Source: a virus (Duplodnaviria > Heunggongvirae > Uroviricota > Caudoviricetes). From it: a stretch of DNA of 16,662 bases. Below, piece after piece: positions 1,954-10,432 of this stretch (positions within the stretch are counted from its first letter, which is position 1; every line of letters begins with the position of its first letter). Position numbers and translations under genes: made by a program. Location: IMG/VR virus record IMGVR_UViG_2875683775_000003, one strand, 5' to 3'. The notes below the pieces were generated by a model. That model did no database searches and was not told the origin of the DNA. It was given only the letters and a program-made list of their open reading frames with translations.

Positions 1954-4175
1954 ACTGCCTCCTTGATTTGCCTGTCATTTAATTCTTTAAACCAGACTCT
2001 GAAATTTCTGATGTGTCCAAACAAATGACGCGTTCCTGCTGCGGTCTGCCCACCAAACCGGTACGATGTTGCTGTAACTCCAAATATTTTACCATTAAGG
2101 TTTGTTGTATAATTACCATTGCATATTGCATTTACTGATAAATCAGATTTAGCTCTCACACCCACAATGAACCTTTCTCCATCTGAGGAAATTTGTGGCT
2201 GAACCATTCCTACGTTGGCGCTTATCTTTCCTGTTGAAACAAACCCCAGCGATAAATAATTATCATCAATACTGTGCCCTCCAACATCAAATATCCTTGG
2301 CGCAACATTGGGCGGTGTACTCCAGTTCCTCCTTACTTCGCACAATACTGTAAAAGGCCGTGTTGACAGGTTATTCGCCGAGGGGATAGTAACCACATCA
2401 CTTGCGCGTGTTGTTGGCATTGTAGTTACAATAAATGACGATGCCGTATTGCCCAGTTCAATTTGCGGCGTCGTCATGGTTAATGTTGAGTCATCATAGA
2501 ATGGCTCATTACTTATTTTATTTGTCATATAAAAAGCACAGTTAACGGTATCAATGTCCGTATTAGCTGTATAAGTGGCCTCATAGTAGGTCCACTCGCC
2601 CTGTTGTTCAGCTTTGGCTGTTATAAGGGATGTATTACCGCTTACTGTTGCGATCCGGGTATCCAGATCAAGATAAGAGTCAGCAGAGAATGTATCTGTT
2701 CCACCAATAATAACTGAAACTCTTAACCTGCATCGTGCTTTAGCGCCTTTAACCCGGCACGAAAAAGTGAAACATTCACCACTTGCCAGCGGGAATCTGT
2801 CTGCTGCAACCACACCATGCACAGTATAGCCACCTGTTGTTCCCACTATACTTTCCGTGGGTGTCACCGTGGCATAATTGAACCCCTGTTTATCAGTGCC
2901 AAATGTTTTATTCAGTGCGGAATGAACAGTCCATGAGTCTGGTTTATTTGAGTTCCTCAGATAATTTGTCCTCTGTCCTTCAATCAATAAGCCATCGCGC
3001 TCAAATCGCGGTTCGTCAACTTCAGCAAGCTTGAGTTGGCCGGACTTATTAATATACGTTGCTGTTGAAGCACGTTTAAACTTAACAATCTTGTCGCCTG
3101 GCATTGTTATTTCATCGTCACCAATAACAATCTTTTTATAAGATGGCGAAAAACCCGTAATCATATCCAGCGAATCGTTAAACGGTATCCACACATCAGG
3201 CAGCGGCGGCACTATATTCGCACAGGGCTCTGCAGTCACTTCCGCTGCGGATTCTGCGCGGTCTGCCGCCTTTTCAGCTCGTGTCGCTGCCGACAGAGCC
3301 TCATCCTTTTTCTGCCCGGCCTTTGTTGCGTCTGCTGCGGCCTCCCGCGCTTTTGTGGTGGCGACTCCGGCATTTTCAGCGGCTGACTCTGCATTACGGC
3401 GGGAAGCCTCTTCACTGTCTGCGGAGGCTTCTTCTGACGCACGGGCATTTGTCTCTGAACGTTCTGCCGCTGTTGCTGCGTTTTGTGCGGCTGTTTTTGA
3501 AGAAGCTGCCGCTTTCGCGCTGTTACCTGCATTCGTCTCTGATGTTTTCGCCGCGTTCCTGGACGATGCCGCTGCTGTTTCTGATTTCTTTGCTGCCGCT
3601 GCGCTCTGAGAGGCGGCTTCAGCGTTGCGTGCTGCTTCTTCCACCATTGCCTCAAAACGACGCAATGCCTCCGGCATGACATCATCTTCCGTCATGGCAC
3701 CGAGAAAATCATTCAGCGTACCAGGTCTGGAACCTTCATAGACGGTAATGGTTCCGGCATGTGAAGGCGGAAAACCTTCAACCAGCAGGGTGACGCTGTA
3801 CTGGCCATACTCGACATCCATGCTGTAACGCCCGGCTTCATCCGGATTTTCAGAGGCTACCGTGTTCACCAGTACCGTGGTGCTGTTACGCTTTGCCTTC
3901 AGTTGAATAGTGCAGTTCTGTATTGGTTTTCCCGCACCATCTTTCAGCACACCTGAGATTTTTACTGCTGCCATATTCGGAGCTGACGGCCCCGGTACGA
4001 TATCTTCGGTTTTCGCCTCAGGCGCAACTGGCGCGGTTACCGTCTGATCTTTTGCTGCGGCGTCAGCTTTTGCGTTTTTTGCTACCGCAGGGATAAAACC
4101 TACCTGCTCACGGGATACAATATCCAGGGCGGTATAAATAGTCGGGATCAACCCGGTCAGGGTATTTCCAGCCAT
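1950..4175 (-). CDS. Side tail fibre protein: lambdoid Stf-like N-terminus with a divergent C-terminal receptor-binding region
   Basis: 741 aa from ATG at 4175 (RBS AAGGAA 9 nt upstream); the track ORF start at 4268 is upstream read-through. The N-terminal ~330 aa is Stf-like (MAGNTLTGLIPTIYTALD... followed by an Ala/Ser/Glu-rich coiled-coil repeat). The C-terminal ~400 aa (from ...PLPDVWIPFNDSLD... to ...HIRNFRVWFKELNDRQIKEAV) is unlike the K-12 StfR tip I recall. Confidence 0.85.
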   Translation of the reverse strand: MAGNTLTGLIPTIYTALDIVSREQVGFIPAVAKNAKADAAAKDQTVTAPVAPEAKTEDIVPGPSAPNMAAVKISGVLKDGAGKPIQNCTIQLKAKRNSTTVLVNTVASENPDEAGRYSMDVEYGQYSVTLLVEGFPPSHAGTITVYEGSRPGTLNDFLGAMTEDDVMPEALRRFEAMVEEAARNAEAASQSAAAAKKSETAAASSRNAAKTSETNAGNSAKAAASSKTAAQNAATAAERSETNARASEEASADSEEASRRNAESAAENAGVATTKAREAAADATKAGQKKDEALSAATRAEKAADRAESAAEVTAEPCANIVPPLPDVWIPFNDSLDMITGFSPSYKKIVIGDDEITMPGDKIVKFKRASTATYINKSGQLKLAEVDEPRFERDGLLIEGQRTNYLRNSNKPDSWTVHSALNKTFGTDKQGFNYATVTPTESIVGTTGGYTVHGVVAADRFPLASGECFTFSCRVKGAKARCRLRVSVIIGGTDTFSADSYLDLDTRIATVSGNTSLITAKAEQQGEWTYYEATYTANTDIDTVNCAFYMTNKISNEPFYDDSTLTMTTPQIELGNTASSFIVTTMPTTRASDVVTIPSANNLSTRPFTVLCEVRRNWSTPPNVAPRIFDVGGHSIDDNYLSLGFVSTGKISANVGMVQPQISSDGERFIVGVRAKSDLSVNAICNGNYTTNLNGKIFGVTATSYRFGGQTAAGTRHLFGHIRNFRVWFKELNDRQIKEAV

Positions 4176-5711: not shown

Positions 5712-7170
5712 TTAGGAGCGCCAAAAAAAACCTGAAAACAATATAATAACAGGATAAATTTCAAGGCGACCAAGAATCATAGCTATGCACATTAAATATT
5801 TTGCAATGTCATTAAGCACTCCGAATGACGATGCAGTAGCCCCAAAACCTAATCCCATATTATTAATACATGCAGCCACTGTTGCAAATGATGTAAGAAA
5901 ATCATATCCCATACCATTTAACACCAGTATAAAAAACACCGTGAAGAGAGTATAAAGAAAAAAGAAACTCCATACAGACCTCATTACACGATCTGTAACT
6001 ATCTTCCCTCCTACATTTACACTCAACAACGCTCTGGGATGAGAAAGCTGATTTATCTCGTGTTTGCTTTGTTTGAAAAGTATAAGAAATCGAAGTGACT
6101 TAATTCCACCACAAGTTGAACCTATACATCCCCCAAAGAAACTTGACGACAGCAAAAACACTATCGTGTGCGTGGGCCAGCTTGCATAATCCTGCGTAGC
6201 TAAACCATTATCAGTGAGCATGGAGCTGGCAAGAAAAAACGAATGAATAAAACTTCCATGCAAGTCATACATACCTATATGCCAGACCTGGAAAGAGGTA
6301 ACAATGATCACCCCTAAGGCTATTAACAGAAAGAAACGAAGTTCAATATCTCTGATTAAAGGTTTTATCGTTTTCCTGCTAATAACAATATACCAAAGAG
6401 TGAAGTTGAAAGCCGATAGCAGGGAAAAAGAACCAGCCACCAGCTCAACCAAATAGTTATTAAAATATCCGATACTCTCGCTATGAGTTGAGAAACCACC
6501 AAGCGAAACTGTGGAAATCCCGTGACAAATAGCATCAAACAAAGGCATTCCTGCAAGTCTATAACAGACAATACAAGCAATACCTAATAAAGAATAAGTT
6601 ATCCACAGTGTCCGTGACGTATCGGCCAGGCGGGGAGTGAGTTTGTCATCCTTAAATGGCCCCGGCATTTCTGACTGATAAAGCTTTGCACCACCAATAC
6701 CCAATAATGGCAATACAGCAACCGCCAGAACAATAACTCCTAAACCACCTATAAAATTTAACTGTGACCGATAGTACAAATATGCCCGAGGTAATGAACT
6801 AACATCATCAATTACAGTTGCTCCTGTTGTTGTTATTCCAGAAACCCCTTCAAACAGAGCATCAATGAACGTTAAATTAAGTTCTGAGTCAATCCATAAA
6901 GGGAATGCACTAATAACAGAAAACAAAATCCAAAACATTACAATTATAATAAACCCATCACGGGTACGTAATTGAATGCCAGATTTCTTAGTTGTATACC
7001 ACGCTCCGCCACCAATGCAAAAAAAATATAACGAAAGTTATAAAGAAAACGAATAGGCTTTTTTCTTTATAAAACAATGCTACAACCATTGGTGGCAACA
7101 TTGAAAGACTATAGAGCCAAACCAGGAACCCACACATATGAGTAACAACTCTTACATGAGATGTATTCAT
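5712..7170 (-). pseudogene. trkG: TrkG/TrkH-family potassium uptake protein gene, disrupted by a +1 frameshift
   Basis: An N-terminal 50-codon fragment (MNTSHVRVVTHMCGF...FVIFF, within track ORF 6988..7188) and a C-terminal 408-aa ORF (5712..6938) lie in different frames. The frame of the large ORF is open upstream to 7037 and reads ...FFCIGGGAWYTTKKSGIQLRTRDGFIIIV. The two frames meet at an A8 run at 7019-7026; removing one A gives a single 485-aa product, the length I recall for K-12 TrkG. Low GC, consistent with a moron. Confidence 0.85.
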
Positions 7171-7307
7171 ATCTAAATATTCTTTCAATTATAACCACCT
7201 TGCTGCAATATTATGATTATACTGTATAAAATTTAACTCCTCTTAGATCTTACTTCACTGTTCCTTATGAAACAATCATCAAAATGAATCATATTGTAGT
7301 TAAGATT

Positions 7308-7772
7308 TTACTTTAAACACTGTTCGGTTATGTATTGCTGAGCACCTTCAAGTTGGGCCTGCATCATTACCAGTCGTTCCCGGAGGGTGAAATAATCCCG
7401 TTCAGCGGTGTCTGCCAGTCGGGGGGAGGCTGCATTATCCACGCCGGAGGCGGTGGTGGCTTCACGCACTGACTGACAGACTGCTTTGATGTGCAACCGA
7501 CGACGACCAGCGGCAACATCATCACGCAGAGCATCATTTTCAGCTTTCGCATCAGCTAACTCCTTCGTGTATTTTGCATCGAGCGCAGCAACATCACGCT
7601 GACGCATCTGCATGTCAGTAATTGCCGCGTTCGCCAGCTTCAGTTCTCTGGCATTTTTGTCGCGCTGCTCTTTGTAGGCGGTGGCGTTATCACGGTAATG
7701 ATTAACAGCCCATGACAGGCAGACGATGATGCAGATAACCAGAGCATAAATAATCGCGGCGACTCTGCTCAC
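7308..7772 (-). CDS. rzpR: Rz-type i-spanin (inner-membrane spanin subunit)
   Basis: Track ORF 7308..7787. The product closely resembles lambda Rz (N-terminal membrane anchor [24 protein letters not shown], coiled-coil body). The likely start is a GTG overlapping the endolysin stop, which gives 154 aa; the start is uncertain. The symbol is by analogy with K-12 Rac. Confidence 0.7.
7367..7552 (-). CDS. rzoR: Rz1-type o-spanin lipoprotein, embedded out of frame within Rz
   Basis: 61-aa ORF with lipobox LVVVGC and a proline-rich segment ([16 protein letters not shown]), fully nested in the +1 frame of the Rz gene. This is the classic Rz/Rz1 arrangement. Confidence 0.75.
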
Positions 7773-8302
7773 TGATCTATCCCCCAACAGGCTAATGCGC
7801 TTTCCTGGTCACGACGAATAACCTGTCCATAGCAGTTATTTGAACGTATGCGGCAATCGCGCCCACCATCTTTTATCCACCAGCGAATCGCCTCGCATGC
7901 ACCCTTACGATCACCGGCATTCAGCCGCTTATAAAACGTCGACGGGAAACACTTACCGGGGCCAATGTTATAGGGACAAAATGACGCTATACCCGCTTTC
8001 TGTGGTTCGGTCAGTGGTACTTTAATATTGCGCTCCACCCATGCCAGCGCCTTATCACGTTCAATAGCGTTAACCTGGTCGCATTTTTCCTTCGACAGCC
8101 TCATTCCCGGTATGACGGGCTTACCATCCACCATTGTGGCACCACGACAGATGGTCCATATACCGGAACCATCGCGGTATGCCGTTGTGTGGTTACCTTC
8201 TTTTTCATCCAGAAACTGGTCGAGAATATCAGGCGCAGGCGCACCGACGGCAATCAGTGCCAGAACGGCAGCCGACAGGCCGTATCTGATTTTTGCGTTC
8301 AT
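7769..8302 (-). CDS. SAR endolysin, T4-lysozyme-like (GH24), P21 R-type
   Basis: 177 aa. N-terminal weakly hydrophobic signal-anchor-release segment ([15 protein letters not shown]) followed by a lysozyme catalytic region ([20 protein letters not shown]). Overall resemblance to phage 21 R and DLP12/Qin endolysins. No obvious SD sequence. Confidence 0.8.
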
Positions 8303-8407
8303 GGATATTTATCAGGATTTATCGGTTTCTGAACCCTGGATATGTTTATCTGTCCCGGCCTGTTGAATCAGGCAAGGAATAGTTAAATACAATAGAGAGG
8401 ATTGTTT

Positions 8408-8680
8408 ATGGACAATAGCACCATTTCTCTACAGGAGTTGCTCGACTGCATTTCCAAGCTTCGGGATGATGTAAATGCCCTTACTGTCGCATTTTCATAT
8501 CTGGCATTCTCAATTCCCAAGGAACAAATGCAACCAACACTGGCATCGCTCCAGCTTGAATCACTCAACCCCAAATGGTCCCAGCAACAACAAAATTCTT
8601 TCAAGTGGCTGGCGGTATTACTGGAAGAAAAATATGCTGGTGAAATTACCATTTCGGCGGAGTCTTCAGTGAACCAGTAA
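8408..8680 (+). CDS. Hypothetical protein encoded antisense within the lysis cassette
   Basis: 90 aa from ATG at 8408 with RBS GAGAGG about 7 nt upstream; the track ORF begins at a TTG at 8402. Protein-like composition and no internal stops, while the minus strand of the same interval has only an implausible Cys/Ser-rich frame. Overlaps the 3' end of the 8646..8990 gene by 35 nt. No family recognised. Confidence 0.4.
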   Translation: MDNSTISLQELLDCISKLRDDVNALTVAFSYLAFSIPKEQMQPTLASLQLESLNPKWSQQQQNSFKWLAVLLEEKYAGEITISAESSVNQ

Positions 8681-8990
8681 TTCTTCCCGGCAGTTTTCCT
8701 TTGTAGGTTATCCACACACCCTGCGCCTCTAAAATTATGGGGCGCTTTTCCGGTGACTGCTCATCCCCTTCACATAACCCTGCAGCAACATCCAGGAAGA
8801 CCTGTCTGATGCTCCTTCTGGCTGCTGCCTCATAAAACTCCAGCGCGGCACCTTCAACACGGTCCAGCGAGATGTCCAGGTCTAAAATTTCACCGTCAAA
8901 GCGTTTTTTGTCCCGTAACGCTAAAGTTACCGTAACTTTATTCTCAAAATTGCGGATCCCTTTCACAATCAGTTCATAGTTTTGAGTCAT
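8646..8990 (-). CDS. Hypothetical lysis-cassette protein, positional equivalent of ydfR (DUF1327) of Qin
   Basis: 114-aa ORF with a strong RBS (GGGGAGAG), starting 4 nt after the pinholin stop. In Qin, as I recall, a DUF1327 gene (ydfR) sits between holin and endolysin. Homology is not verified, and the C-terminal ~25 aa may be an altered tail. Confidence 0.55.
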   Translation of the reverse strand: MTQNYELIVKGIRNFENKVTVTLALRDKKRFDGEILDLDISLDRVEGAALEFYEAAARRSIRQVFLDVAAGLCEGDEQSPEKRPIILEAQGVWITYKGKLPGRITGSLKTPPKW

Positions 8991-8994
8991 TGAA

Positions 8995-9183
8995 TTACTC
9001 TCCCCGTGCAGCCTTACGCTTATCTTCTTTAATCTTGAAATAAAGATTTGTCAGATACGTCAACAGGCCAAACACCAGACTACCCAGCACACCTATTGCT
9101 GCCCACTGTGAGGGCGTGACTCTATCGAGCAACTGTAAAAACCAGTAGCCAGCACTGCCTGCGGAGGTGCCATAGGCGACACC
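8995..9183 (-). pseudogene. 5'-truncated S21-type pinholin gene
   Basis: The minus-strand frame encodes [62 protein letters not shown]-stop, which resembles the phage 21 pinholin from about residue 8 onward. Upstream in frame there is no ATG/GTG/TTG before a stop; the sequence runs into the ydaG RBS and start on the other strand. Confidence 0.65.
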
Positions 9184-9205
9184 CGGCGTTAAGGGGAGAG
9201 ATAAG

Positions 9206-9340
9206 ATGGTGCATTACGAAGTAGTTCAGTATTTGATGGATTGTTGCGGTATCACTTACAGCCCGGCTGTGCAGGCTTTACGTAGCAACGACTGGGATCT
9301 CTGGCAAGCAGAAGCCTCTATCCGCAACAACAAGATGTGA
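9206..9340 (+). CDS. ydaG: Small Rac early-region protein (44 aa)
   Basis: ATG at 9206 with RBS AAGGGGAGAG; 44 aa ([18 protein letters not shown]...). Below the ORF-track length cutoff. Symbol assigned from length and position as I recall K-12 Rac. Confidence 0.6.
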
Positions 9341-9350
9341 GGTGCGAAAA

Positions 9351-9506
9351 ATGCAAAAAATCGACCTCGGCAACAACGAATCCCTGGTGTGCGGCGTGTT
9401 CCCCAACCAGGATGGAACGTTCACTGCCATGACGTATACCAAAAGCAAAACATTTAAAACCGAAACTGGTGCGCGCCGATGGTTGGAGAAGCACACAGTA
9501 AGCTAA
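9351..9506 (+). CDS. ydaF: Small Rac early-region protein (51 aa)
   Basis: ATG at 9351 with RBS GAGGTG; 51 aa (MQKIDLGNNESLVCGVFPNQDG...). The 3' end overlaps the sieB 3' end (convergent). Symbol assigned from memory. Confidence 0.6.
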   Translation: MQKIDLGNNESLVCGVFPNQDGTFTAMTYTKSKTFKTETGARRWLEKHTVS

Positions 9507-9991
9507 CGATTAAAACGTCTACTCCTGCTGTTCCAGAATAACTTCATAAAATGGGAGTATTTTTCGGTGACGAGATAATAAGAACAGTTTGCGCTATCAC
9601 TCTGATGTTGAATGATGCCCTTCCGTTCTAATTTTTTCATAACCGGGTTACGGCAAGGAGAAGTGATAATAAGATTTCCTGTTTTAAGGAAATCTTTAAA
9701 TACAGCGATTTCTTTCTCAGATAAACGAAGCAATACTCGTTGCTCTGGTAGTAATGAATAATGCTTTTGAATATGCGCTCGCAATCTTGAGAAGGAAATG
9801 GCGACCACGAAAGAAAAGGCAAAAACGATAATCTGAAAGAGCCAAGGTATTTCAGTATAAGCATTGAATGCGACAGTAAACTCTTTCGGTATCAGCCAGA
9901 GAGTGAGACCAAAAATGATAATCGTATACATAAGTCTTTCGAGTGGCTCGTTAGCAAAAAGTTTCAACAATGGAGTAAATACATCCAACAT
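9503..9991 (-). CDS. sieB: Superinfection exclusion protein B
   Basis: 162 aa from ATG at 9991 (MLDVFTPLLKLFANEPLERLMYTIIIFGLTLWLIPKEF...). Membrane protein matching Rac SieB in length and sequence as I recall. The track ORF extends to 10114 as upstream read-through. Confidence 0.85.
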   Translation of the reverse strand: MLDVFTPLLKLFANEPLERLMYTIIIFGLTLWLIPKEFTVAFNAYTEIPWLFQIIVFAFSFVVAISFSRLRAHIQKHYSLLPEQRVLLRLSEKEIAVFKDFLKTGNLIITSPCRNPVMKKLERKGIIQHQSDSANCSYYLVTEKYSHFMKLFWNSRSRRFNR

Positions 9992-10432
9992 ATCAATAAC
10001 TCTCAACTGTAAGGGTATTGAAATGTTAACACAAGCTCTCGCTGTAGGGGTATAGCCGAGACCACCGAAGCCCGGAGGTGGTGAAATAAAACCGGGCACA
10101 ACACGAAGGCGCATTTCCGATATCCATAAAGAGTCGGTCTTGTCTGTTAAATTTAAATGGTGGGAGTGCGCCTCCGGTTGTAAATAACGACATTGCTGTG
10201 TGTAGTCCTGGCGGCATCAGTTTTTTTCTTGAAGTTCGGCTGATGTCCGCCCTTTTTAAAGTGAATTTTGTGATGCGGTGAATGCGGCTAAGCGCACGTG
10301 GCACAGTTAAAAGTCATGTTAGTCCTTATTGGTTTGGGTGGGAAAGCCGACTGTAATTGTTAACTGGTTGCAGTCACCTGGAGGCACCAGGCACCGCATC
10401 AACAAAGTTCATTTGTAAAAATGGAGATAATT

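Follow-up and report, generated by a model that had tools for sequence, protein, structure and literature searches.

Morons of the bor and lom type of phage lambda are accessory genes that lie in or beside the late operon and are expressed from the prophage; bor is located just after Rz, on the opposite strand. Antiholins (lambda S107, the dual-start products S68/S71 of phage P21, and T4 RI) are membrane proteins or membrane-tethered periplasmic domains that are co-expressed with the holin. The DNA analyzed here is a stretch of 16,662 nucleotides from a virus of the Caudoviricetes (IMG/VR record IMGVR_UViG_2875683775_000003; the whole stretch is referred to below as the window), which was found to be 100% identical over all 16,662 bp to the Rac prophage region of Escherichia coli B str. 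REL606 and also to that of other B strains. Between its holin and endolysin genes, on the strand opposite to them, lies an open reading frame (ORF) of 90 aa, here called ORF90. ORF90 is a real, conserved and optional gene that is linked to a peptide tail on the product of the gene it faces. It is probably a genuine accessory gene, or moron, sitting backwards in the late lysis operon of a Rac-type lambdoid prophage and travelling together with the DNA for this partner tail as a two-part cassette.

ORF90 shares with the bor and lom type its standing as an optional extra of the late operon, read against late transcription and present or absent among syntenic phages. Its GC content is somewhat below that of its neighbors (44% vs 47–52% in the flanking genes, with 38% in the adjoining spacer), a small difference. 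A bor gene occupies the equivalent place after Rz in a Salmonella locus (L104). The sequence and fold of ORF90 are unrelated to those of Bor and Lom, its product is predicted to be cytoplasmic rather than a lipoprotein or outer-membrane protein and, unlike the classic morons, it is coupled to a conserved peptide grafted onto a neighboring gene. Its sole likeness to the antiholins is its location near a holin; unlike them, it has no hydrophobic segment and is encoded on the other strand. The profile of PHROG 2411, a family without functional annotation, is matched by ORF90 and by its distant relatives, and to this family are added here chromosomal members (Serratia, Sodalis) and the linkage to the partner tail. 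A literature search by protein accessions and PHROG identifier returned no mention of the ORF90 protein, and a search on antisense morons in lambdoid lysis cassettes returned nothing specific. The gene facing ORF90 in the window is of the ydfR type. A 2026 study reported that YdfR of E. coli K-12 uses its first 72 residues to bind the catalytic N-terminal half of RNase E, that RNA co-purifies with it, that standard conditions give no expression of it, and that its over-expression has little effect on the transcriptome (PMC13232886).

In the window, 692 bp separate the edge of the endolysin start codon at 8302 from that of the holin stop codon at 8995, in agreement with the approximately 690 bp given in an earlier note made from the sequence alone. 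ORF90 (8408–8680, + strand; WP_000370546.1, labeled "hypothetical protein" by PGAP) converges with a 114-aa gene co-oriented with the lysis genes (8646–8990, − strand; annotated by PGAP as a YdfR family protein), and the two share 35 nt (8646–8680). Both the extra DUF1327-type gene and the convergent overlap had been recognized in the earlier note. The ORF90 start was placed at ATG 8408 (90 aa, MDNSTISLQELL…) and not at the TTG 8402 of the automatic ORF list (8402–8680, 92 aa). Its ribosome-binding site, as read from the sequence (AGAGAGGA, 8394–8401, + strand), holds GAGG at 8397–8400, 7 nt before the ATG, and the string GAGGATT(G/A)TTTATG is kept in 8 of 8 aligned E. coli-type copies (5 distinct alleles), which bears out the good site that had been noted there.

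Homologues were sought with a profile run against 1.8 billion representative proteins, followed by a second round with the distant matches. Proteins of 81–106 aa at 26–45% identity were recovered across the Enterobacterales, from Serratia (many species), Sodalis, Chania, Gibbsiella, Chimaeribacter, Acerihabitans, Citrobacter, Yersinia and other E. coli lineages; they have in common the motif ELLxxIxxLRxxVNxLxxAFSYLxFS…TIxALxFESxN, and the distant members also match PHROG 2411. ORF90 itself matches this profile at E = 4.7e-59 (residues 3–92 of the 92-aa translation vs profile positions 1–90 of 90). In the family members whose DNA was examined, the plus frame is open in all 15, in agreement with the clean reading frame described in the earlier note. 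The same note had called the minus strand non-coding-like; there is in fact an open minus frame of 110 aa with a GTG start (8383–8715), but it is open in just 2 of the 15 and has stops in the other 13, and it has no Pfam or PHROG match. ORF90 was therefore taken as a real protein-coding gene and the 110-aa frame as its shadow, on the grounds of the stop counts and the deep protein family.

The pattern of variation counts in favor of a real gene. In five E. coli-type alleles (up to about 12% nucleotide divergence) the variable sites of ORF90 by codon position number 15/17/35, with an excess at third positions, and dN/dS is 0.23–0.58 for the whole ORF and 0.17–0.47 in codons outside the ydfR overlap, but the dN/dS of the 110-aa minus frame is as low as or lower than that of ORF90. 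Since the antisense shadow frame shares its wobble positions with ORF90, dN/dS was rejected as a strand discriminator. The low dN/dS of the shadow frame is a trap for selection-based gene calling.

ORF90 is present in 1139 of 5426 complete E. coli genomes (21%), 1121 of these at 80% coverage or more, and all full-length matches listed carry the PGAP label "hypothetical protein". It is missing from 164 of the 167 phage records that match the interval and was found in three sequenced phages: Chlobot, vB_EcoS-783R2 and phiSTEC1575-Stx2k. Searches of sequenced phages by tblastn with distant family members returned E. coli-type copies only, and single-protein scans of viral contigs with P0066, P0072 and P0074 gave no matches. 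In phage PhiR40_1, which has no ORF90, a 63-nt spacer separates a ydfR of 116 aa from R; relative to the window, approximately positions 8361–8650 are replaced, and only the last YdfR residues are altered. In the Qin prophage of K-12, ydfR abuts rrrQ and the antisense gene is absent. ORF90 is thus present or absent among related, otherwise syntenic phages, as is expected of a moron. The suggestion in the earlier note that the gene would be an unusual moron holds as to a conserved, optional insert and fails as to its being unusual, since the gene already has a PGAP annotation, falls within PHROG 2411 and is carried by 21% of E. coli genomes; the observation as first stated, concerning a common and already annotated gene, is an ordinary one. 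What is gained is that a "hypothetical protein" of a fifth of E. coli genomes (among them B, BL21, REL606 and ST131 clinical strains) is a member of a real family that extends across the Enterobacterales. The conservation of the 90-aa ORF among relatives, which had been named as a point to check, was found.

Remote homology searches, proposed earlier for both proteins of the interval, assigned the 90-aa protein to PHROG 2411, with its Enterobacterales homologues, and the 114-aa product to DUF1327 (PF07041, where a score of 141.8 bits exceeds the gathering cutoff of 25, at E = 8e-42 and over profile positions 1–92 of 93; also PHROG 406). The 114-aa gene lies between a class II holin and the endolysin, the same order as in K-12 Qin and many phages. 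Its C-terminal module ends in ...YKGKLPGRITGSLKTPPKW, and the tail proper is encoded at 8646–8702 on the − strand (KGKLPGRITGSLKTPPKW followed by the stop codon). K-12 YdfR (Qin) is 103 aa in length and has only approximately residues 1–70 in common with the window protein; its C-terminus differs and has no ITGSL tail. The YdfR of the window has the K-12-type N-domain reported to bind RNase E (PMC13232886), without the K-12 C-terminal module.

In all other phage contexts examined, the gene facing the ORF90 relative has an unrelated N-terminus and the same C-terminal peptide, …ITGSLxxP, and BLASTP between the partners found only this C-terminal tail in common. The tail reads IEGKIRNEKITGSLRVPMKL in the 238-aa partner of Citrobacter, SGELYSEKITGSLFAPL… in the 71-aa partner of Yersinia, IKGNIFSEQIFGELKKPPSY in partners of 71–85 aa on IMG/VR contigs, IKGGQLRYKRLTGDILIPLES in a 62-aa partner (locus L099) and INGKIRNEKITGSLRAPVKL in the 63-aa partner of Salmonella and C. 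freundii. A loose motif, [LIV][TF]G[SED][LI]xxP, occurs exactly once per phage locus and always in the convergent partner; it is absent from the chromosomal loci and from K-12 Qin. The conserved tail residues are encoded by differing synonymous codons among lineages, and in Citrobacter and the IMG/VR contigs (L012 and L013 among these loci) almost the entire tail sequence falls beyond the ORF90 stop. Because of this synonymous variation and this location, the tail was regarded as a selected peptide and not as a by-product of the overlap; on the same two grounds, the notion that it merely reflects the coding of the ORF90 C-terminus or an RNA element was rejected.

The tail and the antisense ORF also appear to be exchanged together. 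In an Atlantibacter hermannii-type prophage (L106, positions 3001–3502, between tail genes M and L), the partner has the same N-terminus as that of L013 (MSLDNKVELLN…), the tail is absent with the C-terminus replaced, and the antisense ORF has been replaced by an unrelated one. What moves thus seems to be ORF90 together with the end of the neighboring gene that encodes the tail, given this joint replacement and the recurrence of the pair in varied contexts. In phage 2H10 (LR595862.1), a YdfR of 183 aa keeps ITGSLKTPP internally and then runs into a different C-terminal extension, which faces a different antisense ORF; the 114-aa ORF simply extending across the interval in relatives, the simpler arrangement that the earlier note had allowed for, is not what is seen there. 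The 2H10 antisense ORF (L097, 461–727, + strand) is unannotated, encodes 88 aa, matches PHROG 2572 at E = 1e-53 and overlaps the ydfR 3' end. It was considered as a divergent ORF90 and rejected at an hhalign probability of 0.2%. Like ORF90, the antisense ORFs of 2H10 and Atlantibacter are small, helical, convergent and overlap the 3' end of a gene for the partner N-domain; they have no detectable homology to ORF90, and the C-terminal ends of their partners differ from that in the window. The ydfR-to-R junction can be regarded as a hot spot into which alternative small antisense genes are swapped together with the C-terminus of the partner. A further arrangement was observed in a Salmonella enterica prophage (L104, 3158–3421, − strand), where ORF90 has degenerated to a remnant of its C-terminal third (QQNSFKHLAKELEERLGSSITIL). 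The tail-bearing partner next to it (63 aa) is intact, and the remnant is located upstream of genes for a holin, lysozyme, Rz and Bor.

The genomic positions of the family are varied. Each of the 87 E. coli-type copies in the loci examined converges with ydfR and lies between S and R. In two IMG/VR phage contigs a relative was located between tail genes M and L, in a prophage remnant of Yersinia massiliensis it follows the tail assembly gene I, and in L099 and L100 it lies between Rz and the genes for terminase. The Citrobacter relative is upstream of a different holin and endolysin, and that of other E. coli strains comes behind an AIDA autotransporter gene. Homologues standing alone were found on the Sodalis chromosome and in one metagenomic genome, and on the Serratia marcescens chromosome the gene order is pyrC-dinI-[ORF90 homologue]-bssS-solA. 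The Serratia homologue encodes 93 aa (L093, 4001–4282, + strand) behind a strong Shine-Dalgarno sequence (AAGGAG), and related genes occur in many Serratia species. An obvious LexA box (CTGTataaataaaCAG) and a terminator belong to the Serratia dinI gene; prompted by this neighbor, the region upstream of ORF90 was inspected by eye for a LexA box and none was seen.

The ORF90 protein was modeled with AlphaFold2 as three amphipathic helices (residues 8–35, 38–52 and 59–77) with a disordered tail (81–90), at a pLDDT of 77 with a shallow alignment and 80.8 with a 54-sequence alignment. Its net charge is −5, its maximum Kyte-Doolittle score over 19 residues is 0.88 (vs 1.72 for the holin), and it contains no hydrophobic segment. 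The model is that of a soluble, acidic, three-helix protein. No match to ORF90 was found in Pfam or NCBIfam, a sequence-profile search of the PDB gave no match, fold comparison gave no informative one, and neither ORF90 nor YdfR matched a PADLOC defense-system model at E <= 1.

On the reading preferred here, the cassette in phages would consist of ORF90 and the adjacent opposite-strand DNA that gives an upstream late gene the C-terminal peptide …G-x-[LI]-x-x-x-x-I-T-G-S-L-x-x-P, the recipient in the window being the DUF1327 gene ydfR. Since ORF90 runs antisense to the Q-dependent late transcript and is preceded by a Shine-Dalgarno sequence of its own, its expression would not depend on that of the lysis genes and would most likely take place from the prophage in the lysogenic state. 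Its product would be neither an enzyme nor a membrane protein but would act through binding to another protein, with the tail of the partner as the obvious candidate target, a working guess, and would have no specific role in holin timing. The coupling of the phage ORF90 to a peptide of the facing gene gives a testable handle on PHROG 2411 and on the YdfR C-terminal module together.

Several results weigh against this reading. A standard scan found no canonical sigma-70 promoter beyond chance level in 6900–9300; the only relaxed match, TTGAAT-19-TACAAT at 8363/8388, would leave almost no leader, and its 19-bp spacer is a further count against it. ORF90 has no convincing terminator: a hairpin followed by four T residues (GCGCCTC-N9-GGGGCGC-TTTT, 8723–8749, + strand), a low-confidence candidate located 43 nt after the ORF90 stop and inside ydfR, was missed by the terminator scan, its folding is not significant (z = −0.92), and its stem is not strictly conserved. 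A literature search turned up no expression data of any kind for ORF90, and there is no fold or family match that hints at a biochemical activity. If the partner were made only in the lytic cycle and ORF90 only in lysogeny, a direct link between the two proteins would demand overlapping expression. The coupling itself is loose, in that sequenced phages most commonly have a tail-bearing ydfR with no ORF90 beside it, the Salmonella partner was kept while its ORF90 decayed, and the chromosomal homologues stand alone with no partner.

The ORF90 promoter is presumed to lie within the AT-rich spacer between the endolysin start and ORF90 (8303–8407, 105 nt, 38% GC). This spacer stays with ORF90 even when the endolysin has been replaced, as in phiSTEC1575-Stx2k and E. 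coli SA53-3, both of which have a different lysis cassette on the left. At the left edge of the inserted block it contains a perfect palindrome, read directly from the letters (GCCTG-TTGAAT-CAGGC, 8358–8373, 35–50 nt upstream of the ORF90 start), with arms that are conserved and a loop that is variable among alleles; PhiR40_1 does not have the palindrome, which might serve as an operator or form an RNA hairpin. When the sequences upstream of 15 homologues were scanned under relaxed criteria, no sigma-70 site common to them was found. Clearer hairpin-U tracts occur at the same relative position as the candidate terminator in Yersinia (L010), Citrobacter (L012) and L099, with significant folding in L010 and L099. 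A string, GAGG(A/G)ATGGCTGAT(T/A)A(A/C)CTCT, is conserved approximately 25–40 nt before the start of the ORF90 homologue in L010, L013, L086 and L099. It holds a Shine-Dalgarno sequence and an ATG. In L010 and L099 these open a three-codon mini-ORF (MAD-stop), whereas in L013 and L086 they extend the homologue in frame at its N-terminus; a leader peptide or an alternative start could be represented here.

A possible alternative, though one held only tentatively, is that ORF90 and its tail-bearing partner, here YdfR, form a two-component pair of the toxin/antidote or effector/inhibitor kind in which ORF90 binds the ITGSL tail. Such a pair could affect RNA decay in the host, or phage defense, by way of the YdfR N-domain that binds RNase E. 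The tail and ORF90 are co-inherited at no fewer than five different genomic positions with unrelated partner N-termini, the tail is under selection at the peptide level, the tail and antisense ORF were swapped together in Atlantibacter, and YdfR of K-12 was reported to interact with the N-terminal domain of RNase E and to be recovered together with RNA (PMC13232886). Each component also occurs alone, however, PADLOC returned no defense-system match, and the RNase E work concerns the tail-less K-12 protein, over-expression of which barely altered the transcriptome (PMC13232886). It is rather doubtful that ORF90 and the ITGSL-type peptide together form an undescribed mobile cassette with interacting products, a portable switch or inhibitor-effector pair directed at host RNA metabolism or competing phages, in which the tail would be received by the DUF1327/RNase E-binding domain, by coiled-coil proteins or by the 238-aa protein.

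It is unlikely that the functional product is instead an RNA, that is, a plus-strand transcript through 8400–9200, antisense to the ydfR and holin mRNA, that silences leaky lysis-gene expression in the lysogen, with the ORF90 frame itself incidental or secondary. The convergence with ydfR and the 35-nt overlap would fit such a role, and with no strong terminator in the 600 nt downstream of ORF90, read-through into ydfR and S in the antisense direction is plausible. Conservation across genera is, however, at the protein level (26–45% identity), with a conserved ribosome-binding site and a frame open in 15 of 15; the chromosomal homologues have nothing to be antisense to; and a scan of 7000–10200 with the covariance models of Rfam 15 gave no match at E <= 1. 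A silencing transcript and a role for the protein are not mutually exclusive.

The earlier note had suggested a lysis regulator or anti-holin, and a function in tuning holin S or endolysin R is very improbable. The placement between S and R in 87 of 87 E. coli-type copies, and the position of the pair directly upstream of a holin in Citrobacter and Salmonella, are what such a regulator might show. Against this, ORF90 has no membrane segment, is encoded on the strand opposite the lysis genes and hence not co-transcribed with the holin, and is missing from most lambdoid lysis cassettes. Nor is the family confined to such cassettes, its members being found in tail regions, by terminase genes and in Serratia, Sodalis and E. 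coli chromosomes away from lysis genes, and ORF90 is intact in E. coli B although the holin there has no start codon. Given a soluble protein, a scattered distribution and the opposite strand, ORF90 was judged most unlikely to be an antiholin, and with this part set aside the interpretation in the earlier note is partly supported overall. That ORF90 is a spurious frame or a decaying relic without function is barely credible: it is an orphan without a Pfam or NCBIfam model, the promoter search of its region came up empty, about 10% of its distinct database sequences are truncated or frameshifted and Salmonella holds a remnant, yet against these stand a deep family with conserved length and motifs, a plus frame open in 15 of 15, a conserved ribosome-binding site and a confident structure prediction.

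The lysis operon that surrounds ORF90 in E. coli B is itself disabled. The P21-type class II holin gene (8995–9207, − strand; PF04971, E = 6e-33; PGAP EssD holin) has lost its 5' end: its frame contains no ATG, GTG or TTG before the TTG at 9132, and the start assigned by PGAP is an ATC at 9207. In E. ruysiae (L011), which has the same Rac-type arrangement, the holin is intact (MKSMDKLTTGVAYG…) with a Q-like antiterminator upstream, and its frame reads MKSMDKLTTGVAYGTS…, in contrast to the truncated frame of the window. The window holin runs directly into ydaG (9206–9340, + strand), ydaF and sieB. Because of this junction, the immunity, replication and Q regions were concluded to be deleted, leaving the lysis operon without a promoter and without a holin start; equally, since the holin is fused beside ydaG, the E. 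coli B Rac prophage has no racR-to-Q region, which lies between ydaG and the lysis genes in related prophages. With the operon already disabled, ORF90 is among the few parts of the cassette that may still be expressed.

In phiSTEC1575-Stx2k (L003) and E. coli SA53-3 (L008), lysozyme R is not the next gene after the holin-ydfR-ORF90 block; its place is taken by another complete lysis set, comprising two holin-family genes and an M15 peptidase, with iraM just upstream. On account of this second set, these Stx2k phages have two tandem holin systems. The remaining lysis genes of the window are the endolysin, a phage lysozyme of 177 aa (7769–8302, − strand; PF00959, E = 1.3e-24; lysozyme in PGAP), and Rz (7308–7772, − strand; "lysis protein" in RefSeq/PGAP). 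Inside Rz, whose reading frame spans 7308–7787, an ORF of 61 aa for an Rz1-type lipoprotein lies out of frame and is missing from the PGAP record (7367–7552, − strand).

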